From positions 1 to 32,000 of the forward strand of contig OZ257143.1 in NCBI GenBank assembly GCA_965279305.1: a stretch of DNA of 32,000 bases. Reading direction: 5' to 3'. The DNA comes from Gammaproteobacteria bacterium. Lineage in GTDB: Bacteria; Pseudomonadota; Gammaproteobacteria; JBIOEC01. Positions 20,853 to 32,000 of the stretch are shown piece by piece (position 1 is the first letter of the stretch; each line of letters starts with the position of its first letter). Under the pieces are notes generated by a model, which searched no databases, was not told the DNA's origin, and saw only the letters and a program-made list of their open reading frames with translations. Position numbers and translations under genes: made by a program.

Positions 20853-20895
20853 GAAAAAGCCTTTTAATTTATGTTATTTAACGGAAACAAAAAAC

Positions 20896-23004
20896 ATGAC
20901 CAAAACTTGGCAAAATTTAATCGACGAATCAACGCCTAGTGATTTGGAAGCAAACTGGGAAAGTGTAAAAAGAAAACATCAAGCAGAGCTAAGGGATAAA
21001 GCCAAAACTCAATCTAAGAAAAATTTTGATTGTTTAACAGGCTTAGTCTGCGACAATAAAATGATGACCAGCCTTTTAGCCCCTCTCTCAACATTGGCTG
21101 GACAAACCAACGGAACCATTATCCTTAATTGCATATTAGCTATACTGGCAAAATCAAGCTCATTAGCATTAAAAATTGTTGCACTTTATGAATTACAACA
21201 AATTATTACTTTTCCTTCGGAAGGAGGAGATTTAAGTAAATTAAATAATATATTAATTATATTTTTAGCGGTATGGGGATCCTCACGTATTGCCAATGAC
21301 GTTGGCGATTCTTGTTTAACGCTTGCTCAAAGAAGAAACAATTTAAATTTAACCGGAACACAATTATTGTTTGCTAATTTAATGCCTTATGATGTTTTCT
21401 ATAAAAATTTTATGTATATGGATATAGACGGTAGTAAGGGAACTGAGTTAAGAGATGCTGCATTTGTTTCCTGGCGAATTGTACAACTTTACTACCAAGC
21501 ACCAGATTTTCTAAAAAACGTTTTTAGTGTATTTTTTTCTACCGCAGAAGTCATTACCCTTCCTCTTCTTTTTGTGAATACAACTCCTACCACCATTGGG
21601 ATTACACTTGGGGTGGCTGCTATAACTAATTTAGCTGGCGCTGTGATTAGCTCATATCATTCACGCTTAAAATCAGCTCAAGAAGGCGAGCAAGCTAATT
21701 TGCATGTGCAATCCATGAGAAATATTTCCCAGATGCTGAATATAAAAACCTATAACACTTCTTCTGTGGAATTCGGTTATTATGAAAATATTCAAGATGC
21801 ACTAATAAGTACTGGAAGGAAAGTAGAAGGGATTAAATGGACTATGAAAGCAGTCCAGTCTATTATTTTAGCCGTGGTATTTGGCCTAGTATTATCGGAT
21901 TTCGCAAAACGCGCATTAGATCCGGAAGATCTCGAAGTAGAGCTTGGAGATGTTGTTTTCTTGGTTAATTTTTTTCTATTAGTCGTTGCTCCTTTAACAG
22001 CTATTACAGATAGCTGGTTAAATATTGTTTATGAAACATCTACGCTTAATAGAGCACGCTTATTTTTAATAGATGTACGAAAAGCTTTCTCTGATCACTT
22101 AGCTCAAGCATTACCAGAAGACGCAGGCACTTTTCAACAATCCGCACTTTATCAAGGTCAGGCTCCCCTGCCTTTACTTCACCCAAATTTAAAAAACGTT
22201 ATTGTACGATTTAATCATGTCAATTTTGGTTATGGTAGCACTGAAACATTCCAAGATATTAACTTTGAAATTCAAAAAGATGAAGTAGTTGCTCTCTTAG
22301 GACCCAGTGGTATTGGGAAAAGTACCCTGCTCAATCTATTACTGGGAAATTTTAAACCTACTCATGGTGAAGTTCAATATTTTAATGCCGATGGTTACGA
22401 AATCACTTACACAGATGCAGCAAATACGATTGCTACAGTTCCTCAAGATACGTTATATTTTAGCTCCGCTAATTTTTTATATAATATAAAATATGGGCAC
22501 GGACACCCCGATAATTATGCTCGCCCCACTCAAACAGCTATAGATGCAAGAGCCGTTTCTGCAATAGAAAAAAGTTTATTAAAAGATGTTTACGATAGAA
22601 CTGGAAACGGAACATCTGAGGCAAAAGGGCTTTCCGGTGGAGAAAAAAAACGCGTAGGTATTGCTAGAGCCTTGTTACGAACGCCCCGCCTACTTATTTT
22701 AGATGAACCTACAGAAGGACTAGATCCTCCCAATGCTGCCGTAATTATTAATACTTTTAATAATTTGAATGATGGGGGATCACTCGTTATTATTACTCAT
22801 GATATTCCCACTATTAAGAAAGTAAATAAAATTCTATTCGTATATAAAACTGCAGACGGTAAAGTCCATTTAAAACAAGATACTTATGATAATTTAAGTC
22901 ATCCTCAAAAAGGTTTACGTGAATTTAAAGAGTTTATTGCATTGCAAACGGTAGTTTTTCATCCTAAAAAACCCACAGGATCGTTTCAAAATACCCCGAA
23001 ATAG
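20896..23004 (+). CDS. ABC half-transporter (N-terminal TMD + C-terminal ATPase), probable exporter
   Basis: The ORF track gives 20824..23004. I prefer the ATG at 20896 (MTKTWQNL). Multiple hydrophobic helices in residues ~80-420. Walker A GPSGIGKST, Q-loop TVPQD, signature LSGGEKKRVGIARAL, Walker B LLILDEPTEGLD, H-loop IIITHD. Confidence 0.9.
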   Translation: MTKTWQNLIDESTPSDLEANWESVKRKHQAELRDKAKTQSKKNFDCLTGLVCDNKMMTSLLAPLSTLAGQTNGTIILNCILAILAKSSSLALKIVALYELQQIITFPSEGGDLSKLNNILIIFLAVWGSSRIANDVGDSCLTLAQRRNNLNLTGTQLLFANLMPYDVFYKNFMYMDIDGSKGTELRDAAFVSWRIVQLYYQAPDFLKNVFSVFFSTAEVITLPLLFVNTTPTTIGITLGVAAITNLAGAVISSYHSRLKSAQEGEQANLHVQSMRNISQMLNIKTYNTSSVEFGYYENIQDALISTGRKVEGIKWTMKAVQSIILAVVFGLVLSDFAKRALDPEDLEVELGDVVFLVNFFLLVVAPLTAITDSWLNIVYETSTLNRARLFLIDVRKAFSDHLAQALPEDAGTFQQSALYQGQAPLPLLHPNLKNVIVRFNHVNFGYGSTETFQDINFEIQKDEVVALLGPSGIGKSTLLNLLLGNFKPTHGEVQYFNADGYEITYTDAANTIATVPQDTLYFSSANFLYNIKYGHGHPDNYARPTQTAIDARAVSAIEKSLLKDVYDRTGNGTSEAKGLSGGEKKRVGIARALLRTPRLLILDEPTEGLDPPNAAVIINTFNNLNDGGSLVIITHDIPTIKKVNKILFVYKTADGKVHLKQDTYDNLSHPQKGLREFKEFIALQTVVFHPKKPTGSFQNTPK

Positions 23005-23013
23005 CATGAAAGA

Positions 23014-23352
23014 CTAGCACTCTTCAAATGAAAGACCTAGTCTATTTAAAAGAGGCTGTGAATAATTTCCTTCAATGATGGCATCAACATCAAAGGTAAA
23101 ACGTAAAGTAGCAGGATAGCCAATTAATTTTGCGGCATGATTAGGCGGAAGTGGCTGACTCATAAAATCAGATGCCTCCCACAACATCAGTGCGCCCCAA
23201 AGATTATTATCAGGATCAGAAATCCATATTTTTAAACGTAATCCATCAACACTTTCCCAAGGAGAAGTCCATTCATCTTTTAAATGCTGGCGAAGGGATC
23301 CGATGGTTTGATCTGATTTATCTAAATTCCACCAGGCAATAGTTGCTTTCAT
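23014..23352 (-). CDS. Small (112 aa) hypothetical protein, last gene of the phenazine operon; possibly ferredoxin-like/ABM fold
   Basis: Start overlaps the upstream GATase gene stop by 4 nt (translational coupling). The alternating beta/alpha propensity (ATIAWWNL / TIGSLRQHLKDEW / LRLKIWIS..GALMLWE / ATLRFTFDV) is only suggestive. Confidence 0.5.
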   Translation of the reverse strand: MKATIAWWNLDKSDQTIGSLRQHLKDEWTSPWESVDGLRLKIWISDPDNNLWGALMLWEASDFMSQPLPPNHAAKLIGYPATLRFTFDVDAIIEGNYSQPLLNRLGLSFEEC

Positions 23353-24041
23353 AAACTTAAAATCTTTTTTAAATTAGACGACATGATATCGATACCATTA
23401 CGCGAAAGTAATGACTCTGCATGAAATTGTATGGAAAAAAAACGTTTACTACGAAGTGCATGAACTTCATTCAACTCATGATCTCGACAAACTTCAATAA
23501 TTTCACCGCTAGGTGTTGTAATAAAATTTTCTTCACATTGAGCAACATAGGTATTATAAAAACCTAATAACTCACGATTTCCAAAAAGATCCACTTCTCG
23601 CTGAACACCTTGATTAGGAACTGCTCTACGAATTAACTCTAGCCCTAACTCTATACTTAATAGTTGATGGCTTAAACAAACCGCTAGAAAACGATACTGC
23701 TCTTCTAGTAAGCGACGAATCGTAGCACGCATATTAAGAATTCTCGGATCACTAAGGCTTCGAGGATCGCCAGGGCCAGGTCCCATTACTATTAAATCGT
23801 ACTTTTCATTTAATAATAAAAGTTCATGCCATTTGATAAGACTCACTTGCCACCCCAGTGCTTTTAACTGTTGCGCAATCATAGCTGTAAAAGTATCTTC
23901 TGCATCAACCATAATTGCTTTGCGTCCATTAAATTCAGGTTGTATTTTCATACGCAAACTCGGTTCAGAAAGCCAAAAGTTAGCAATACGCTCATTTCTA
24001 TTATTTAATGCGGCTTGTACTATTGCTTGATCTTTAAACAC
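23349..24041 (-). CDS. phzE: PhzE C-terminal part: linker + class-I glutamine amidotransferase domain (separate ORF because of a frame change)
   Basis: 230 aa from GTG. GATase triad context FLAVCLSHQLL (Cys) and IQFHAES (His/Glu). The first ~40 aa look like the inter-domain linker. Overlaps the preceding ORF by 8 nt in a different frame. Confidence 0.85.
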   Translation of the reverse strand: MFKDQAIVQAALNNRNERIANFWLSEPSLRMKIQPEFNGRKAIMVDAEDTFTAMIAQQLKALGWQVSLIKWHELLLLNEKYDLIVMGPGPGDPRSLSDPRILNMRATIRRLLEEQYRFLAVCLSHQLLSIELGLELIRRAVPNQGVQREVDLFGNRELLGFYNTYVAQCEENFITTPSGEIIEVCRDHELNEVHALRSKRFFSIQFHAESLLSRNGIDIMSSNLKKILSL

Positions 24042-25227
24042 AAGAGGTTTCCCTTTTTACATTCATGGCAGCTAACAAAGCCATTGCTTTGGCGTGCGTT
24101 TCTGCTGCTTCAGCTAATGGATCAGAATGACGTACAATAGTTGATCCCACTCCAATACACACTTTTCCCTGGTTACTAATATCGGCTGTTCTAATCAAGA
24201 TAGCAGAATCTAAATGAGAATTTCCAGATTCATCGTAACCCATCACAGCAGCCACACCTGCATAGTAAGCCCGACCTTTAGGTTCATACTTTACAATAAC
24301 CCTACACGCATTTTCTATTGGACTCCCGGTTACTGTAGGAGCAAACATGGTTTCAGTTAATACCATGCGTGGATCACACGTCGTTTCACCCTGAATAAAA
24401 TATTCAGTGTGTGCAAGTCTAGACATTTCTTTTAGAAAAGGGCCCACAACCTTTCCTCCTTCGGGACAAAACCGAGATATCATTTTAAGCTCTTCTTCAA
24501 CCACCATGTAAAGCTCATCTATCTCTTTAGAAGTAGAAAGAAAATTCATTAATCCTTCAATAGTAGGCCCACTTGCTGGATATCGATATGTGCCACTAAT
24601 AGGATTCATCATAGCTATATTATTTTTTAATGAGACATGCATTTCAGGGCTTGCGCCAATAAAAGTACGATCGCCAGTGTGGATTAAAAAAGTCCAATAA
24701 GCTCCTGTTTCATTTTGCAAAAGCGATCTAAATATGGAAAGTGATGTATAAACAGTATAATCCGTAATCTCAGCCATAAACTGTCTTTTAATAACAAAAT
24801 TAGAACCTTCTCCAGCACCAATTTCTTCTTCTATCACTCGACGTGCTATTGCGGCGTAAGCCTGATCATCAATATCAAAATGACCGTTAATAAGATCAAC
24901 CGGTAAATGAGAGATCATTTTTAATAGATCCTGTACAGAAGTAATATCATAACTCTCAATATCCATTACTATCAGAGGGGAATTATCGTTGATGTGTGCA
25001 AATCCACGTTCTCTCAGCTGCCTATAAGGGATCAGAATCAGTGAAGAGAGGGCTTGCCCTAATGGTTTTTTAATTAAAGGAATACCGTTAATAGAATCTG
25101 TTGGGTTAATTTTCCCAGTAATAATTTCCATATTTTCAGCGCCTATCGCGTGAGGACGATGAAGCAAAGCAAAAGGCTTTTTGTTTGCAACACATTGCAA
25201 TACATTATTTAAGCCGGCTTCTATCAC
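24034..25227 (-). CDS. phzE: PhzE N-terminal part: chorismate-utilising (MST/anthranilate-synthase-like) domain, 2-amino-2-deoxyisochorismate synthase
   Basis: 397 aa. [10 protein letters not shown] near the N-terminus as in Pseudomonas PhzE (PFALLYRP). C-terminal chorismate-binding motifs ...[15 protein letters not shown]...DSAILIRTA...[23 protein letters not shown]. Start overlaps the phzD stop (ATGA). Confidence 0.85.
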
Positions 25228-25850
25228 GTTAATACCTCATGCGTAGGAATTACGACAGCACAACATTTAGCCGCATATTTCAATGCCATCAGATGATCGG
25301 CTTGCGTAAAGTCGGCAATAGCATCTGCCACCAGAAAAGTTTCAATATCATTACTAAATGCATCAACCGCCGTCATTAATACACCAATATGAGCATATAC
25401 TCCACAGATAATTAACTGATCACGTCCGGCCTCGCGCATTCGTGATAACAAATTTGATTTATAAAAAGCGCTATAGCGCCATTTAGAAAATATCCAATCT
25501 TCTGGTCGTGGTGTTAATCCTTCAACCACACGCTTATCAATTTCTTCTGCTTTCATTCCCGATCCCCAAAAATCTCTCAAAAGACCTCGTTGTTCGTTTG
25601 TCATATTGCCTGTTTGAGTGGTGTAAGCGATGGGGATCCCTGAATGAATACAACGTTCTCTAATTAACATCGTATTTTTTAATAAATCCTCTCTGGGATT
25701 TTCAAGAGGAATTCTCCTGACAAAATAATCTTGCATATCATGTATCAGTAAGACAGCACGATTGGGATCAACAATCCAAGGCGCTACATTGGTAAATATT
25801 TGAGAAGATACGGGCATAGAATAAGATTCAATTTCTGGAATTCCTGACAT
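25224..25850 (-). CDS. phzD: Isochorismatase PhzD (2-amino-2-deoxyisochorismate hydrolase)
   Basis: 208 aa. Collinear by eye with Pseudomonas PhzD: MSGIPEI..., [73 protein letters not shown]. Confidence 0.93.
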
Positions 25851-25887
25851 AATTCAATATATCCTTATTAATTTTCAAGATGAAAAT

Positions 25888-26994
25888 CTATCCAACATTT
25901 ACTTTTTCAGCTCTCTCCATATTATTAGCCGCACTTCCTAAACTTCTACGTGCTGTCACTGCATTAGCTAACATTTCAAGCAAGATAACGCTATCACTCC
26001 AGCCAATACAAGCGTCTGTTATACTTTGTCCATAGGTTAAAGAAGTGGCAGAATTCAGTTTTTGGTTTCCTTCTACTAAATTGCTTTCTATCATAACTCC
26101 TAATAGTCGTTTCTCACCATTTTTTAATTGTTCAGAAATATCTCGTCCTACGTTCATCTGGTAACGATAGTCATTACTGCAATTGCCATGACTAAAATCA
26201 ACCATTATTTTTTCACGCAAACCTACTTCATTCAATTTTTCGCACGCTTCAATTACGCATTCATTTGAGAAATTAGGCTTTTTGCCACCGCGCAATATAA
26301 GATGACAATCTGAGTTTCCCATACTTTCTATTACCGCACTGCAGCCTTCATCCGTAATAGAGAGAAAATGATGAGAAGATTTAGCCGTTAAAATTGCCTT
26401 AATAGCAGGAGACAAATTACCATCAATATTATTTTTAAATCCAACAGGACAAGGAAGACCTGAGGCAAACTCTCTATGTATTTGTGATTCTGCCGTACGA
26501 GCACCTATTCCACCCCACGACACGAGATCGGATAAATAGTTGATGCTAATAGGATTTAAAAACTCAGTAGCGGCTGGCATTCCCATATTGTTTAAGGAGA
26601 GTAACAAGCTTCTAGCCATACTAAAACCCAAATCAATCTCATAGGTTCCATTGAGATTAGGATCATTAATAAGACCTTTCCAACCTAAACTAGTGCGAGG
26701 TTTTTCAAGATACACTCGCATGACTATTAAAAGTTCTTTATTAAGTTTTGTTTTTAGAGTAAGTAGAGACTGCGCATATTGCTCTGCAACCTTAACATCG
26801 TGAATTGAGCAAGGGCCAATAATCACTAATAAGCGATCATCTTCATTATTAAGGATGGCAGAAATTTCAGCACGAGTGCGCGATACTAAACCCGCAGCCG
26901 ATTCAGTAATCGGGTGTTCCTTAAATTTGTCAGAGGGAGATAGCAATTTCTTGATGCAGCGGATTCTTGTGCTTGCTAGTTGAGCCTGCCGCAT
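25888..26994 (-). CDS. DAHP synthase, class I-alpha (AroG/F/H-type), playing the PhzC role in the cluster
   Basis: The ORF track gives 25888..27021. The ATG at 26994 (MRQAQLAS...) has AGGGGA 6 nt upstream and avoids overlap with phzF. Collinear with E. coli AroG: DDRLLVIIGPCSIHD, EKPRTSLGWKGLINDP, WGGIGARTAESQIHRE, CPVGFKN, ILRGGKKPN, SITDACIGW. Confidence 0.93.
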   Translation of the reverse strand: MRQAQLASTRIRCIKKLLSPSDKFKEHPITESAAGLVSRTRAEISAILNNEDDRLLVIIGPCSIHDVKVAEQYAQSLLTLKTKLNKELLIVMRVYLEKPRTSLGWKGLINDPNLNGTYEIDLGFSMARSLLLSLNNMGMPAATEFLNPISINYLSDLVSWGGIGARTAESQIHREFASGLPCPVGFKNNIDGNLSPAIKAILTAKSSHHFLSITDEGCSAVIESMGNSDCHLILRGGKKPNFSNECVIEACEKLNEVGLREKIMVDFSHGNCSNDYRYQMNVGRDISEQLKNGEKRLLGVMIESNLVEGNQKLNSATSLTYGQSITDACIGWSDSVILLEMLANAVTARRSLGSAANNMERAEKVNVG

Positions 26995-27004
26995 AATATA
27001 TCCC

Positions 27005-27901
27005 CTATGCTTCGTAAACATTATTATTTACAGAATTCTCTAATATATTGTTAGCTTTCCATTGTAAAAGCTCTGCTCTAACAACTATTATCGCGGATCC
27101 TGCCACTATCACCGAATGAATTTTCTCTGGAGTTCCAATCGCTTTGGCACGCATGATAGAACGTCTTCCCATTTCCACTCCCTGCCATATTTCTATCCAT
27201 TCATTGAAATGAGCATGACCATGACGGGCAAGATGCAACGCTAGTGGACCTGCAGCCGATCCTGTTGCTGCATCTTCTGCTACTCCATAAGCAGGAGAAA
27301 ACATACGCATTCTCCAATGATCGTTATTATTTGCAAAACAATTAATGGCCACATCAGGGAGTTCTGCTAGAATTTTCAGATCGGGTTTTAGTGCTGAAAG
27401 CGCTGATACACTCGGAAGTCCAACAAAAACATGTCTAGGTCCATTTCTATATATTTCAATAGGAAGAGTAGAAGATTCTATGCCTAAACTTTTTAATACA
27501 CGATCCGCATATTCATAGTTTTCCCATGTAGGTATGGGTTGCTCCATTTGAGCTGAAACAGTTTGACCATCTAAGCCACGTACCAATGTAAATGGAATAA
27601 TACCCATAGCAGTCTCTAGCATTATGCGATTTCCAGAAAAAATTTCTCCTAAAACAATAGCAGTCCCCAGTGTAGGATGACCAGCAAAAGGTAATTCATT
27701 GACGGGTGTAAAAATTCGAACTCTTACATCACCACCTGCTTCAGGAGGAAGAACAAAAGTGGTTTCAGACAAATTTAATTCTTTAGCAATACGCTGCATA
27801 TCACGAGCATCGAGTGAAGAAGCATCAATAAATACAGCAACGGGATTTCCTTCTAAAGGACTATCGGTGAAAACATCCGCAACTACATATTTTAATTTCA
27901 T
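27005..27901 (-). CDS. phzF: Phenazine biosynthesis isomerase PhzF
   Basis: 298 aa. Strong by-eye match to Pseudomonas PhzF: LEGNPVAVF, NLSETTFV (catalytic Glu), RIFTPVNELPFAGHPTLGTA, GPRHVFVGLPSVSALSAL, RMFSPAYGVAEDAATGSAAGPLALHLARHG. Confidence 0.93.
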   Translation of the reverse strand: MKLKYVVADVFTDSPLEGNPVAVFIDASSLDARDMQRIAKELNLSETTFVLPPEAGGDVRVRIFTPVNELPFAGHPTLGTAIVLGEIFSGNRIMLETAMGIIPFTLVRGLDGQTVSAQMEQPIPTWENYEYADRVLKSLGIESSTLPIEIYRNGPRHVFVGLPSVSALSALKPDLKILAELPDVAINCFANNNDHWRMRMFSPAYGVAEDAATGSAAGPLALHLARHGHAHFNEWIEIWQGVEMGRRSIMRAKAIGTPEKIHSVIVAGSAIIVVRAELLQWKANNILENSVNNNVYEA

Positions 27902-27925
27902 ATTTATTGTCCTAATAAAAAATCT

Positions 27926-28285
27926 TCATGCAGGGCTACCCATACCCGGGTGTTCTGCTGGTGGTAAAGCATTACCAGGAGCAGGTGAATGTGATTTATT
28001 ACATTGTTTATATACAACACTCAAGATAAACATAAATCCTACTACTACTCCAGCAATTCCAATTTTTTGATTAACGGGATCATCACTTTGGATGGCTACA
28101 ATACCTAAAAAAACTCCCAGGAGACCAAAAGCCATGCCAACGATTTTCATACGAATATCAAAAGTAGTTTCAGTATTCGCCGTTATTGTATTTTGTAGCT
28201 CTATGCTAGTTCTGGGAGCAGGATCGCCAGGCACTTCTGTGCTATTTCGAGCTGCGTGGTCTGCGAAGGTTGGATAATAATACAT
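27926..28285 (-). CDS. Small membrane protein (119 aa) with two closely spaced TM helices and Pro-rich termini
   Basis: TM1 IVGMAFGLLGVFLGIVAI, short loop QSDDPVNQK, TM2 IGIAGVVVGFMFILSVVY. AAGGAG about 10 nt upstream of the ATG. Preceded by the only large (145-nt) gap in the operon. Confidence 0.55.
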   Translation of the reverse strand: MYYYPTFADHAARNSTEVPGDPAPRTSIELQNTITANTETTFDIRMKIVGMAFGLLGVFLGIVAIQSDDPVNQKIGIAGVVVGFMFILSVVYKQCNKSHSPAPGNALPPAEHPGMGSPA

Positions 28286-28430
28286 AAATCTTTAACTCCT
28301 TTACCTTAAGTTTATCTGTTAAAACATGAATGTCAACAAACATTAAGCAAGGATCCATGACTATTCTATTTTGAAGAATAATGTCTCCTATATTGGTTGA
28401 ATCAAATAGTGAAACCATAATTAAATTTTT

Positions 28431-28919
28431 CTACGAAGGAAGGCCTTCTCTTTTTATTTTCGGAATGGAGATACCCAACGCTAGCATTTGATTATAAGGA
28501 TTCATAAACTCTCTATTTTGTTTAATTTTACCATTACACATTAAAAATGAATGTATAAAATGATTGCTGTAATAGCCAGGAGGATATCCTGGAAAAAGAA
28601 TTTTTCCCTCTCCATCGCATTCCACCCAAAATCTGTTCGGATCTTGAGTATCAAATACTTGAACATTTTTCCATTCCCAATCAGGAAAACATTTCAAAGA
28701 CCATTCACCATGCTTTCTTAAACCCTCATGCCCATGAGTAACAAGCGGTTGCATAGTGTCATTCGTCCATAAACCACCACTTCCATCTTCAGTAAATAAT
28801 TGATAACGAGTTAAACGGCCTTCCCCTTTTCGACTCATATAATCTTGAACCACGAGTCTGTTTCGATACCGAAGATCATTATCGGTATCAATACTTTTAT
28901 CCAACGTTTCTGTATCCAT
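28431..28919 (-). CDS. phzB: Phenazine biosynthesis protein PhzA/B (single copy)
   Basis: 162 aa. Collinear with Pseudomonas PhzB as I remember it: LRYRNRLVVQDYM, CFPDWEWKNVQVFDTQDPNRFWVECDGEGK, GYPPGYYSNHFIHSF, GKIKQNREFMNP, IPKIKREGLPS. Confidence 0.92.
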   Translation of the reverse strand: MDTETLDKSIDTDNDLRYRNRLVVQDYMSRKGEGRLTRYQLFTEDGSGGLWTNDTMQPLVTHGHEGLRKHGEWSLKCFPDWEWKNVQVFDTQDPNRFWVECDGEGKILFPGYPPGYYSNHFIHSFLMCNGKIKQNREFMNPYNQMLALGISIPKIKREGLPS

Positions 28920-28946
28920 GATGAGCTCCTTGATTTATGATTAATA

Positions 28947-30239
28947 TTACCTTGTATGTTCCGTTGTTTTCAACCATTTATTTTCCATTCTAACTCCACG
29001 ATTACACATTAAAAAATCTGCTAGATAGCCATCATGCGGCACTCGAAAATCCATCCATGATGTAGGAATATTGCCTATATAAACATTAGCAATAGAAGCA
29101 TCGGCTAATACCTTATTTATCAGATCTTTCTGACGAGATAACACGGTCACAACCAGTGAATGAGATAATGCTTTATAACATCTTTCTTGTTGATTAAAAG
29201 GCGCAATGGTGACACAAGGGAAAGGAAGTTCACGTTGAACCATAGGATCTGAAACGTTATCCACTAAAGTAATCTCCGCTCTTTGTGAAGAAAGCGCTAT
29301 TTGTTGCTTCAATTTGATAGCAAATGCTTCGTGATTATCCTCAACCAAAATGGCACTCGTTGAAACGCAAGCCGCACCACCCAATGATAAAACAGATTGT
29401 GCGGCAACCATAACAGCCTCTTCATGTGAAATATCTTTTCCAACAACTATTTTCGATCGACCGGGCCCTTGAACAAGCACTTGGGGATCATGGCTATATC
29501 GCGCAGCCACATCTGCGCCACCATACACAATGGCTAGATCACTTTGCGAAATTAATGTTTCTGCACCTTTATGATCGGTTGGGATCAGTGCAATATATTC
29601 TGCTAACCCTGCCAGCTCAAGTGCGTACACAAGACGTTGTGCGGTAAAAGGTTCTCGAGAAGAAGGTTTAACCAGCGTTCGATATCCCATGGCAATGGCT
29701 TGAGGCCAAAGTGCATGAACACCCGGGCCATTACCTGCTGCAATAATAGAAACAACATCACCTCGTCTGGAAAAAAAACTGCAGCCTGCATTTACTGCAG
29801 CGTCGGTATAATCCCATACAGCATTCGTGGGTGTTGCAGCTTGCAAAATATCACTCATATGAAACAGAGCATAAGAAATAGTCGCTATTGATTCTGTTAT
29901 GATCGATTCTTGCAAACCAGTAATGCTAGAAACCAATGCTGCATACTCTTTTGCATTCAAGCCTGCTAGTGTTTCTTCTTGATAAATATGAGCTGCTTTT
30001 TTTAATCTCGCATATCGTTCTGACAAATTGAGTGAGGGTTCCTCTCGCATCTGTGCTATTTTATCCTGAATATAAACGGTGGGCATGATTGAACTTTCGC
30101 AAATACGTTGTCCAGAAACATCAAAAATTTCTTGTCTCTGTCGAGTTCGATGAGATACACCGAGGCAGCGCGCTTCTATTATATTAATAGCAGAGTTCTC
30201 AGCACAAACTGCGTTCTCACTTTTATAAGACGCCTCCAT
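28947..30239 (-). CDS. Aldehyde-dehydrogenase-superfamily reductase (LuxC/acyl-CoA-reductase-like; EhpG-like candidate)
   Basis: The ORF track starts at TTG 30242. The ATG at 30239 overlaps the upstream stop as TGATG. Rossmann-like IIAAGNGPGVHALWPQAIAMGYRTLVKPSSREP. Candidate catalytic Cys in SLGGAACVSTSAILV. The family assignment is by eye only. Confidence 0.65.
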   Translation of the reverse strand: MEASYKSENAVCAENSAINIIEARCLGVSHRTRQRQEIFDVSGQRICESSIMPTVYIQDKIAQMREEPSLNLSERYARLKKAAHIYQEETLAGLNAKEYAALVSSITGLQESIITESIATISYALFHMSDILQAATPTNAVWDYTDAAVNAGCSFFSRRGDVVSIIAAGNGPGVHALWPQAIAMGYRTLVKPSSREPFTAQRLVYALELAGLAEYIALIPTDHKGAETLISQSDLAIVYGGADVAARYSHDPQVLVQGPGRSKIVVGKDISHEEAVMVAAQSVLSLGGAACVSTSAILVEDNHEAFAIKLKQQIALSSQRAEITLVDNVSDPMVQRELPFPCVTIAPFNQQERCYKALSHSLVVTVLSRQKDLINKVLADASIANVYIGNIPTSWMDFRVPHDGYLADFLMCNRGVRMENKWLKTTEHTR

Positions 30240-31297
30240 CAATACACTCCTTCAATCACAACCTGACCTGATATTTCCATAACAGGTCTTACTTCACAAA
30301 CAGCAGCGCCAGGATAATCCCCTAATGGTGGAAGTCGCGTGGCAGTATCACGCTCTAGAATATTGGGAAATAAAGCAAATTTACTTAAGTAGTTCATCAC
30401 TACTTGTCCTCGTTCATGATAGGGAACGGGTGTTTTCGTTTTCGGATCCACCACTTCAAGCAACACATAAGGGGCATAACTATCGAAAATAGGCGAACCG
30501 TTATTATCTTGATCCATTCTTGCTTTAGTATCAGATAAGATCATAGTACTTCCATAACTGGCCGTAATAGCCACATTAGGGAACACAGAAGATTTTAAAT
30601 AATCGAGAGTATCTACGTCCATTTGAGTTCCTCCCCATGTAATCATCTCCAGCGTCTGATTAAGATATTCAGCTAAAGGACGACGACGGGCGATGGCTTC
30701 TAATAAGGGAGGTGTTGCAATAAGATAAGCAAGTGATTGAGTCGCAATAATAGGTTCTGCTTGATCGATCAAATGATCTAAATAAGCTTTGGCACCCTTG
30801 GTATCACCAGCATGAATCAGTTTTTTTACCCAGCGTGGATCCAAATCAACGGTAAAGCATTGTCCTCCACGTGCTTTTGCACGACGAAGATTAATGGCTC
30901 CCACTAAATGCGGTCCTCCTGGAATAATCGCCAAGGTATTTTTTGGATGATTTCCAGTAAATTTATTAATTCCTTCCAAACGCCAATCCACTAATTTCGT
31001 CAGCCACTCTTCATAAACCACTACCCGCTTTGCCTTTCCTGTTGTTCCACCACTTTCAAATATACCTGCTAGATCAGATTTGTTGAGTCCTTTAGGTTGT
31101 AGATCTTCAACTGCAATCTCACGAAGAAGAAGGCTAACATCAGGAAACAAAGAAAGATCAGCAAAAGAACGTATATCTTTAATAGGATCGAAGCTGAGTT
31201 GATTGCGCATTTCTAACCAAAATGGAGAACCTGTCTCTGGCGAAAAATGCCAATTCATAACTTCGTTTAAATGTTGCTGAAAATTAATCGTAGCCAT
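30239..31297 (-). CDS. Truncated ANL-superfamily adenylating enzyme (LuxE/PaaK/F390-synthetase-like; EhpF-like candidate)
   Basis: The ORF track gives 30239..31612, but its first 105 codons overlap phzG in another frame. The ATG at 31297 (MATINFQQHL...) has GAGG 5 nt upstream and lies 28 nt after the phzG stop. P-loop FESGGTTGKAKRV. About 352 aa, so it lacks the usual C-terminal subdomain. Confidence 0.75.
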   Translation of the reverse strand: MATINFQQHLNEVMNWHFSPETGSPFWLEMRNQLSFDPIKDIRSFADLSLFPDVSLLLREIAVEDLQPKGLNKSDLAGIFESGGTTGKAKRVVVYEEWLTKLVDWRLEGINKFTGNHPKNTLAIIPGGPHLVGAINLRRAKARGGQCFTVDLDPRWVKKLIHAGDTKGAKAYLDHLIDQAEPIIATQSLAYLIATPPLLEAIARRRPLAEYLNQTLEMITWGGTQMDVDTLDYLKSSVFPNVAITASYGSTMILSDTKARMDQDNNGSPIFDSYAPYVLLEVVDPKTKTPVPYHERGQVVMNYLSKFALFPNILERDTATRLPPLGDYPGAAVCEVRPVMEISGQVVIEGVY

Positions 31298-31325
31298 GAA
31301 TACCTCGGAGCAAAAAATAAATTGA

Positions 31326-31958
31326 TTAGGGCTGAAGTTTAGTGCTCTTCCATCCTGTTGCTGTATATTCAAAACGCAAACGTTTATGTAAGCGGTTAGA
31401 ACTTGATGACCAAAATTCCATTGCTTGAGGTTCAAGAACATAGATTGCAAATCTGTCTGGACAAGGCAATGCGCCCATAGGTTCAAGCTGTCGTGCATCC
31501 ACAAGAAGTTGTTCGTAAGAGTGTAAAGGTTCACTTTGATGAGAAACGGTAGACATAGAATGTAATGGTATGGGTCGCTTGTTCCATTCATATATAGCGC
31601 GTTCGCGATCAAGTGGCTTTATTTTTCCACTGACTGAAAGTTGACGGCCAAGCTCTTTCCAATAAAAATGTCCGCATGCAAAAGGAACTTCTTCTGCGTC
31701 TTTTATTTTGCGACTACTGGTATGTGTAGCAAAAATAATTCCGCTATTAGCAAATTCTAAAATAGCCATAACACGAGATGACATTACTCTAGAAATATTG
31801 GTGGTCATCAGCACCATTGCTTTAGGTTCACGGACTTTCTCATCAATGGCTTCTTGAAGCCATTTTTGTCCTAATTCAATGGGATTATTGAAAGAAGTAT
31901 CATACTCAGGAAAATTAAGATCCACTTTACCGGTGGTACTTTCAAAAACACTACTCAT
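31326..31958 (-). CDS. phzG: FMN-dependent oxidase PhzG (pyridoxamine-5'-phosphate-oxidase family)
   Basis: 210 aa. FPEYDT..., REPKAMVLMT, GHFYWKELGRQLSVSGK, C-terminal FWSSSSNRLHKRLRFEY..TGWKSTKLQP, as in Pseudomonas PhzG (...RLHERLRY...GW..RRLQP). Only 42 nt of upstream sequence lie inside the window. Confidence 0.9.
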   Translation of the reverse strand: MSSVFESTTGKVDLNFPEYDTSFNNPIELGQKWLQEAIDEKVREPKAMVLMTTNISRVMSSRVMAILEFANSGIIFATHTSSRKIKDAEEVPFACGHFYWKELGRQLSVSGKIKPLDRERAIYEWNKRPIPLHSMSTVSHQSEPLHSYEQLLVDARQLEPMGALPCPDRFAIYVLEPQAMEFWSSSSNRLHKRLRFEYTATGWKSTKLQP

Positions 31959-32000
31959 AATCCTGCCCTACTTTTGCGTGATTATTATTAGAACATTCTG

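Follow-up and report, generated by a model that had tools for sequence, protein, structure and literature searches.

We analysed a 32,000-nt stretch of the gammaproteobacterial contig OZ257143.1 (hereafter the window), in which positions 23014-31958 hold eleven closely packed open reading frames (ORFs), all on the minus strand, that are predicted to encode a phenazine biosynthetic cluster. Based on our findings, we propose with considerable confidence that this is a functional, chromosomally resident cluster of the ehp type (the griseoluteic-acid branch), mosaic in origin and long resident in a lineage of low guanine-plus-cytosine content (GC); the enzyme activities are predicted. What was observed directly is the identity of the genes, the conservation of their catalytic residues, and the synteny and composition of the cluster. 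The initial annotation of this DNA had also read a phenazine cluster here, and that reading stands; its Legionellales-like host is unproven, and phzE appears to need no repair. Along the operon the order is G-EhpF-EhpG-A/B-x-F-DAHPS-D-E1-E2-y, where x and y are small ORFs and DAHPS is a 3-deoxy-D-arabino-heptulosonate-7-phosphate (DAHP) synthase. The features are as follows.

31988..32000, minus strand: 3' codons of an upstream gene (..R-M-F-stop), probably ehpL-like (Acyl-CoA_dh_2 family), which exits the window
31326..31958, minus strand: phzG, predicted flavin mononucleotide-dependent oxidase acting on the tricyclic intermediate (PNPOx_N and PNP_phzG_C)
30239..31297, minus strand: ehpF-like gene, predicted adenylating enzyme of the acyl-CoA synthetase/non-ribosomal peptide synthetase/luciferase (ANL) superfamily without the C-terminal domain, 352 amino acids (aa) (AMP-binding; PDB EhpF match)
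28947..30239, minus strand: ehpG-like gene, predicted aldehyde-dehydrogenase/LuxC-type reductase, partner of EhpF (Aldedh, LuxC)
28431..28919, minus strand: phzA/B, single copy, predicted to join two aminoketones into the tricycle (PF03284)
28309..28336, minus strand: sigma-70-like site TTGACA-16-TAAACT, inside the 145-nt gap
27926..28285, minus strand: ORF x, orphan, 119 aa, two hydrophobic helices
27005..27901, minus strand: phzF, predicted isomerase of dihydro-3-hydroxyanthranilate (DHHA) (PF02567)
25888..27021, minus strand: type-I (AroG/AroH-like) DAHP synthase (DAHP_synth_1); other possible start at 26994
25224..25850, minus strand: phzD, predicted 2-amino-2-desoxyisochorismate (ADIC) hydrolase of the isochorismatase family, yielding DHHA (PDB 1NF9)
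24034..25227, minus strand: phzE1, predicted chorismate-binding (menaquinone, siderophore, tryptophan, MST) subunit of ADIC synthase (PDB 3R74)
23349..24041, minus strand: phzE2, predicted glutamine amidotransferase subunit, GTG start (GATase)
23014..23352, minus strand: ORF y, small NosA-like accessory protein (PDB NosA 4ZA1)
20824..23004, plus strand: ATP-binding cassette (ABC) half-transporter, convergent with the cluster (ABC_tran)

The coordinates and tight spacing first given for the eleven ORFs agree with our ORF listing. Their number also holds; as separate genes they need two amendments, namely that two of them together make phzE and that the long ANL frame (30239-31612) runs into phzG, the start consistent with its homologues being the ATG at 31297 (352 aa). 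In the source-genome annotation the EhpF-like protein is 377 aa long, 25 aa longer than its close homologues; its start has probably been mis-called there, and overlaps phzG. Counting from the ATG at 31297, phzG and the ehpF-like gene are 28 nt apart. The ehpF/ehpG junction overlaps by 1-4 nt, ehpG and phzA/B are separated by 27 nt, x and phzF by 24 nt, and the DAHP synthase gene and phzD by 37 nt. phzF and the DAHP synthase gene overlap, or leave a 10-nt gap if the latter starts at its second Met, and overlaps of 4, 8 and 4 nt follow at phzD/phzE1, phzE1/phzE2 and phzE2/y. The single larger gap, of 145 nt, lies between phzA/B and x, all remaining junctions being overlaps or at most 37 nt. It holds the sigma-70-like site, which matches 10 of the 12 consensus positions, is the best of the region and could serve as an internal promoter driving x-phzF-aroG-phzD-phzE-y. 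Because promoter- and terminator-like sites in our scan of the region were no more numerous than in shuffled controls, the evidence for this promoter is weak. An Rfam scan of the window returned a tRNA-Trp as its sole match.

All the core phenazine enzymes, PhzE, PhzD, PhzF, one PhzA/B and PhzG, appear to be encoded in bona fide form, as judged by family assignment with Pfam and NCBIfam and by a search of PDB sequences for structure matches. PhzA/B matches PF03284 (PHZA_PHZB) with 251 bits, PDB PhzB2 with 231 bits and Burkholderia PhzA/B with 214 bits, and keeps the equivalents of R41, H73, S77, E140 and R160 (R38, H70, S74, E137 and R157). PhzF matches PF02567 (PhzC-PhzF) with 253 bits and PDB PhzF 1T6K with 347 bits, against 88-102 bits for the non-phenazine YddE/PA4716-type paralogues of its family, and the equivalents of E45, H74 and D208 are kept (SETTF, FAGHP and EDAATGS). 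PhzD (Isochorismatase, 129 bits; PDB PhzD 1NF9, 282 bits, full length) keeps the equivalents of D38 and K122 in HDMQ and KWRYSAF. In PhzE, Chorismate_bind (132 bits) and GATase (100 bits) are both found; PhzE1 matches PDB Burkholderia PhzE 3R74 with 414 bits over residues 23-396, and in PhzE2 the amidotransferase triad is complete, with Cys in AVCLSHQ and His/Glu in FHAES. We take these residues of PhzA/B, PhzF, PhzD and PhzE (Cys-His-Glu), from the structural literature, to be the catalytic ones. PhzG matches PDB 4HMW (188 bits) and PhzG 1TY9 (152 bits) over its full length, and its identity is 77% to the counterpart in L023, a metagenome contig introduced below, and 72% to that of Endozoicomonas. 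The motifs initially picked out by eye in PhzG, PhzA/B, PhzF, PhzD and PhzE as intact (SETTF, AGHP, EDAATGSA, HDMQ, KWRYSAF and NREFMNP) are all present in our alignments.

PhzD, PhzE and PhzF homologues also exist in non-phenazine pathways (PMC5958127). The pathway could thus end at DHHA or feed a non-phenazine product, for example one derived from 3-hydroxyanthranilate, as in the pyrrolobenzodiazepine clusters that reuse PhzE/D homologues. However, PhzA/B with all of its catalytic residues and PhzG lie in the same operon, as does EhpF, a phenazine-specific tailoring enzyme. Because PhzA/B and PhzG accompany intact PhzF, PhzD and PhzE, we regard a DHHA-only or pyrrolobenzodiazepine-type use as ruled out for practical purposes and give it scarcely any probability. 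The earlier argument for a true, tricycle-forming phenazine pathway, which relied on PhzA/B and PhzG, is thus borne out by their catalytic residues.

The DAHP synthase reported at the outset is present, with 273 bits to DAHP_synth_1 and 475 bits to NCBIfam aroFGH; its equation with Pseudomonas PhzC does not hold, since it is of type I (AroG/H-like) and not of type II. Pseudomonas PhzC is a type-II enzyme (PMC8772962). The window enzyme is 49-50% identical to the type-I DAHP synthases of the phenazine clusters of an E. coli plasmid and of locus L027.

The initial annotation had suggested expressing the cluster with a repaired as well as with the native phzE. phzE1 (24034-25227) ends in GTT TAA, and the GTG start of phzE2 lies within GTGTTTAA, overlapping the phzE1 stop. 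Two other low-GC clusters bear on this: L023, on a 603-kb metagenome contig of 37% GC (JGI 3300071510), and L016, in a metagenome-assembled genome of 40% GC (GCA_964494305.1). Both have the same two-gene phzE and carry ATGTTTAA at the homologous point of the interdomain linker, and the stop/start overlap NTGTTTAA is identical in all three (window 24034-24041, L016 1356-1363 and L023 13465-13472). phzE1 is colinear with fused PhzE proteins as far as the interdomain linker, and phzE1 and phzE2 joined in silico align colinearly with the fused PhzE of Pantoea, of the E. coli plasmid and of a high-GC metagenome. Between the three split versions, PhzE2 shares only 46-51% identity, and all three copies are intact. 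Because the same junction is found in three clusters whose E2 halves have diverged and yet stayed intact, we conclude that the split is ancient and has been preserved. Most simply, the window phzE would encode a predicted two-subunit ADIC synthase of TrpE/TrpG-like organization, in which phzE1 and phzE2 are probably translationally coupled. The arrangement would then be a conserved form requiring no repair, and the NTGTTTAA junction would mark a distinct cluster clade with a predicted two-subunit ADIC synthase.

The genes between phzG and phzA/B, initially listed as an ANL and an aldehyde dehydrogenase gene, are indeed there, and can now be named as a putative EhpF/EhpG tailoring pair with relatives in Endozoicomonas, Microbulbifer, Photorhabdus, E. 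coli plasmids and Pantoea. Residues 10-352 of the 352-aa EhpF-like protein align with residues 24-366 of PDB EhpF (3L2K/3HGU; 326 bits, E 2.4e-96). It is 77% identical to its counterpart in Endozoicomonas and 75% to that in L023, and its homologues, 352-353 aa long, are named "phenazine antibiotic biosynthesis protein." The EhpG-like gene lies directly 3' of ehpF; its product matches Aldedh with 53 bits and LuxC with 31 bits. In an alignment with four EhpG homologues (L023, Endozoicomonas, E. coli plasmid and Pantoea), it is 38-67% identical to them and keeps the GGAACVS cysteine motif and RELPFPCV. The two therefore appear to be homologues of EhpF and EhpG of the Pantoea agglomerans D-alanylgriseoluteic-acid (AGA) cluster, in which EhpA-E make phenazine-1,6-dicarboxylate (PDC) and EhpF-O turn PDC into AGA (PMC3175449). 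The G-EhpF-EhpG block is also found in Pantoea (ehpE-F-G), in an E. coli IncFIB plasmid, in Endozoicomonas sp. SM1973 and in L023, and has been described in a Proteus mirabilis integrative and conjugative element (ICE; PMC11278526).

At the right edge, the window closes with 13 bases that read R-M-F-stop on the minus strand, with 29 nt between them and the phzG start codon. Genes of the acyl-CoA dehydrogenase (ACAD) type end in QMF* in L023, RMF* in L026 (Endozoicomonas) and KMF* in L027 (asterisk, stop). In L023 an EhpL-like ACAD gene lies directly upstream of phzG and is preceded by short-chain dehydrogenase/reductase (SDR), major facilitator superfamily (MFS) and methyltransferase genes; these methyltransferase-MFS-SDR-ACAD genes are colinear with Pantoea ehpI-L. 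Three codons and this synteny tentatively suggest that the cluster continues upstream with an ehpL-like gene and griseoluteic-acid-type tailoring functions, in line with the earlier expectation that it extends past the right edge. Inside the window, we found none of ehpH-O or ehpR.

Neither x nor y reached the threshold of any Pfam or NCBIfam family. A search of 1.84 billion representative proteins gave no homologue of ORF x, nor does any of the related loci compared carry it. Its GC by codon position (GC1>GC2>GC3, 0.54/0.45/0.24) follows the pattern of real genes here, an AAGGAG Shine-Dalgarno sequence lies 10 nt 5' of its ATG, and the region's best promoter-like site lies upstream of it. ORF y matches PDB NosA 4ZA1 (E 2e-15), and its beta-alpha-beta pattern and a weak ydhR match agree with this; a single-sequence AlphaFold model had a predicted local distance difference test score of 50, too low for a fold search. 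Of the first 20 loci fetched, 13 (Dyella, actinomycetes and metagenomes) have a homologue of y, 45-62% identical, immediately after phzE, and NosA-like proteins stand at this position in L001-L012, L016, L017 and L024 (Proteobacteria and Actinobacteria). The counterpart in the E. coli plasmid is a 32% match, and the paper on the Proteus cluster notes the same conserved hypothetical gene (PMC11278526). Pseudomonas-type operons do not have it. ORF y thus appears to be a conserved accessory gene of phenazine clusters. One further 58-aa ORF (28242-28418, minus strand), just after phzA/B, was considered as a remnant of an Old Yellow Enzyme and dropped: its approximately 22 N-terminal residues (LFDSTNIGDIILQNRIVMDP) are similar by eye, and no Pfam family matches.

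Several points weigh against a functional cluster of the ehp type. The best model for PhzG, NCBIfam phena_PhzG, gives 226 bits and so stays below its cut-off of 270 bits; PhzG is apparently a divergent member of the family. The EhpG-like protein has an in-frame deletion of approximately 36-40 aa after residue ~321 (alignment columns 322-372), a segment that all four homologues retain, and it could be impaired by this deletion. The start and promoter of the operon are not visible within the window, in which a VOC/EhpR-type (vicinal oxygen chelate) resistance gene and a dedicated exporter were likewise not identifiable. The role of the tailoring pair follows a published proposal: Bera and colleagues reportedly suggested in 2010 that EhpF and EhpG reduce one PDC carboxylate to an aldehyde via an acyl-adenylate. 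Taken further, the phzE in two ORFs, the shortened ehpG, an ORF x without homologues and the 145-nt gap could all be signs of pseudogenization in a reduced genome, leaving a decaying remnant that makes no phenazine; the contig is only 1.87 Mb long, and the genome may be reduced. However, the phzE junction is identical in L016 and L023, with intact halves and a triad kept despite ~50% divergence, every other gene is full length with its catalytic residues, and the overlapping start and stop codons have been maintained. The EhpG deletion, for its part, is in frame and falls in a segment whose length varies among the four homologues. We therefore consider a remnant unlikely and retain the functional cluster as the explanation of the locus.

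The relatives of the cluster point to two sources. We built rough neighbour-joining trees with bootstrap for three sets of proteins, A/B+F+D, G and EhpF+EhpG, and in each of them L023 comes out as the partner of the window (100% bootstrap). The next neighbours are Dyella-type clusters for the A/B-F-D(-E-y) core (90%) and E. coli-plasmid and Pantoea-type clusters for PhzG, EhpF and EhpG (95-100%). PhzF and PhzA/B trees had been called for to find the donor lineage; in the combined A/B+F+D tree, these proteins stand with L023 and then with Dyella-type phenazine clusters. By percent identity, PhzG, EhpF and EhpG are closest, among named organisms, to those of Endozoicomonas (72, 77 and 63%) and Microbulbifer. 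The cluster thus appears to be a mosaic of a Dyella-type core and a marine/enteric ehp-type G-EhpF-EhpG module, a combination that would be older than the split between the window and L023. L023 has the order G-EhpF-EhpG...A/B-F-D-E1-E2 and the split-phzE junction in common with the window, at identities of 46-77%; in L016 the split phzE precedes y, after which comes A/B (81% identical). Both differ from the window in carrying a type-II DAHP synthase and hemerythrin and ABC genes within the cluster and in having no x; L023 also lacks y.

Since the closest named homologues are in unrelated taxa (Dyella, Endozoicomonas and Streptomyces), the phz region could also be foreign to this genome, either a misassembled contaminant or a very recent island from a classical producer. 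The tetranucleotide profile of the region, which correlates with that of the ribosomal/rpoBC region at only r 0.44, would fit such an origin; its correlation with the adjacent accessory region is 0.74, and both values come from short regions. In contrast, the GC and the third-position GC (GC3) of every phz gene match those of rpoB and rpoC (GC3 0.21-0.29 for the phz genes and 0.24-0.29 for rpoB and rpoC), whereas Dyella and actinomycete relatives have 60-75% GC, the only other low-GC clusters being L016 and L023. The sequence is moreover contiguous on the 1.87-Mb contig, to which database entries 100% identical to the window PhzA/B, RpoB and EhpF belong, and the identity of window proteins to database proteins, leaving aside entries of their own genome, does not exceed 81%. 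We therefore judge a foreign origin to be very unlikely. The composition argues instead that the region has long resided in a low-GC lineage, and the earlier case against contamination is strengthened by the agreement in GC3 with rpoB and rpoC.

Among characterized systems, the ehp cluster of Pantoea (Erwinia/Enterobacter) agglomerans Eh1087 (ehpR and ehpA-O; AGA) is similar in having a single PhzA/B, PhzD, PhzE, PhzF and PhzG, then EhpF and EhpG, with PDC as the expected intermediate. It differs in that its identity to the window is only 38-57%. Pantoea plasmids have the order phzA/B-D-E-F-G, ANL protein, aldehyde dehydrogenase, whereas in the window G-EhpF-EhpG precede A/B, and F precedes D-E. 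Compared with the Pantoea cluster, the window also has the split phzE, the type-I DAHP synthase, the NosA-like y and the orphan x, and no ehpR (VOC) was seen. Other ehp-like clusters are those of Endozoicomonas sp. SM1973, Microbulbifer, Photorhabdus, E. coli plasmid NZ_CP076707 and the Proteus mirabilis BL95 ICE. L027 and the E. coli and Proteus clusters share with the window a type-I DAHP synthase and a small gene after phzE, and PhzG, EhpF and EhpG of the E. coli plasmid are 62, 60 and 48% identical to those of the window. The Endozoicomonas, Microbulbifer, Photorhabdus, E. coli and Proteus clusters differ in the order A/B-D-E-y-F-G-EhpF-EhpG, in a fused PhzE and in a core (A/B, D, E and F) that is only 35-58% identical.

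The nearest named core is that of Dyella japonica and Dyella marensis (Xanthomonadales), with 72-77% identity for PhzA/B, 67-68% for PhzF, 53-57% for PhzD and 60-62% for y; D. japonica is an experimentally validated phenazine producer (PMC7591250). The Dyella clusters differ in having no EhpF/EhpG, a PhzG that is only ~33% identical, a fused PhzE and 65% GC. With the Pseudomonas phzABCDEFG operon the window shares the five core enzyme activities, as predicted from PDB matches of 150-350 bits to PhzB2, PhzD, PhzF and PhzG. That operon has two A/B paralogues, a fused PhzE, another gene order and no EhpF/EhpG, and the window, with its single A/B, type-I DAHP synthase, split phzE and different order, is not of the Pseudomonas type. 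The gene order, initially called scrambled, does differ from phzABCDEFG; it is not unique, however, since L023 shares it, and it is better described as typical of the lineage.

The host itself can be placed only broadly. Its RpoB is 83-84% identical to two metagenome sequences; with no other sequence does the identity exceed 75%. The named RpoB sequences at ~74-75%, those of Ca. Berkiella aquae (order Ca. Berkiellales), Thiohalomonadaceae, a Solemya symbiont and Sulfurivermis, have equal scores. In a neighbour-joining tree of RpoB, the window falls in a 10-member metagenome clade (bootstrap 100%) that has no resolved named sister, and no Legionella or Coxiella RpoB was among the top 120 matches. 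With at most 84% RpoB identity to metagenome sequences and ~74-75% to named ones of several orders, the label Legionellales-like is unproven. Ca. Berkiella aquae is an intranuclear bacterium of amoebae. As for the genome having been called effector-bearing, what we find in the window is a single ankyrin protein whose F-box scores below threshold, and a second protein whose N-terminus resembles an F-box more weakly; no Dot/Icm type IVB secretion system lies within the window. The first (15231-16451, minus strand, 406 aa) has strong ankyrin repeats, an F-box-like N-terminus by eye and F-box scores of 18-19 bits, below the cut-offs of 20.5-24.3; NCBIfam Ank effector models cover its ankyrin repeats only, and a plasmid tblastn with it yielded nothing informative. 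The second (19694-20752, minus strand, 352 aa) has, at E 0.11, weak matches to F-box-like models at its N-terminus and to "Tox-ODYAM1 (Odyssella/Amoebophilus toxin)", and no other Pfam family. Both hint at eukaryote interaction and are candidates for it; neither a Legionellales identity nor an effector role follows from them.

Our full-text literature search did not turn up any phenazine cluster described from Legionella or Legionellales, and a 2020 census of 181 producer genomes from 15 orders includes no Legionellales in its text or supplements (PMC7591250); the initial annotation, whose author was aware of none described in Legionella/Coxiella-type bacteria, agrees with both. It is possible, though doubtful, that the host is a protist- or animal-associated and perhaps intracellular member of a deep, hitherto undescribed lineage near Berkiellales/Legionellales, carrying in a ~1.9-Mb genome a vertically inherited and fully ameliorated phenazine cluster with a previously undescribed two-subunit PhzE that defines a low-GC cluster clade. 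If this tentative picture were true, the product would be the first redox-active phenazine of this lifestyle group, perhaps defensive or host-manipulating.

Downstream of y, the ABC half-transporter converges on the cluster, the two stop codons being 9 nt apart. It matches ABC_tran (107 bits) and exporter-type models (CydD/MsbA-like), no Pfam ABC_membrane model matches its N-terminal membrane region of ~440 aa, and its similarity to ABC genes adjoining other phz clusters is generic (24-31%) and limited to the nucleotide-binding domain. It is a possible exporter for the cluster, of uncertain membership. Between tuf and the phenazine cluster, positions 16496-19586 (minus strand) encode a 643-aa protein with a weak ATP-grasp match, adjoining a 383-aa adenine methyltransferase of the D12/Dam class; this content is accessory or island-like. 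In L021 (14056-16449), on the contig that carries the closest RpoB relative (84%), the genes run rpsL-rpsG-fusA, tuf and then at once secE-nusG, which looks like an assembly collapse across two tuf copies.

From the gene content we suggest a plausible pathway for phenazine synthesis by this cluster, inferring what the enzymes do, what they make and which genes lie past the window edge. The type-I DAHP synthase would raise the flux through the shikimate pathway, and PhzE1 (chorismate-binding) together with PhzE2 (glutamine amidotransferase) would turn chorismate into ADIC. PhzD would then hydrolyse ADIC to DHHA, and PhzF would isomerise DHHA to a reactive aminoketone, two molecules of which the single PhzA/B would condense into the tricycle. 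Oxidation by PhzG would lead to PDC, with or without phenazine-1-carboxylate (PCA). EhpF would next adenylate one carboxylate of PDC, and the LuxC/ALDH-like (aldehyde dehydrogenase-like) EhpG would reduce it, giving 6-formyl-phenazine-1-carboxylate. By analogy with L023, later tailoring steps probably fall to ehpL-, SDR-, MFS- and methyltransferase-like genes upstream, past position 32000.

Phenazines are redox-cycling antibiotics and electron shuttles that shape competition, iron acquisition and host damage. The pathway and its chemistry are known; what is new here is the host lineage, which is possibly eukaryote-associated, the conserved two-gene PhzE and the mosaic architecture. For the biochemistry of the family, three points are of interest: the naturally split PhzE, the conserved NosA-like accessory gene and the recombination of a Dyella-type core with ehp-type tailoring. 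The known host range of the phenazine pathway would widen to an uncultured, low-GC gammaproteobacterial lineage with a small genome and eukaryote-like F-box/ankyrin genes.

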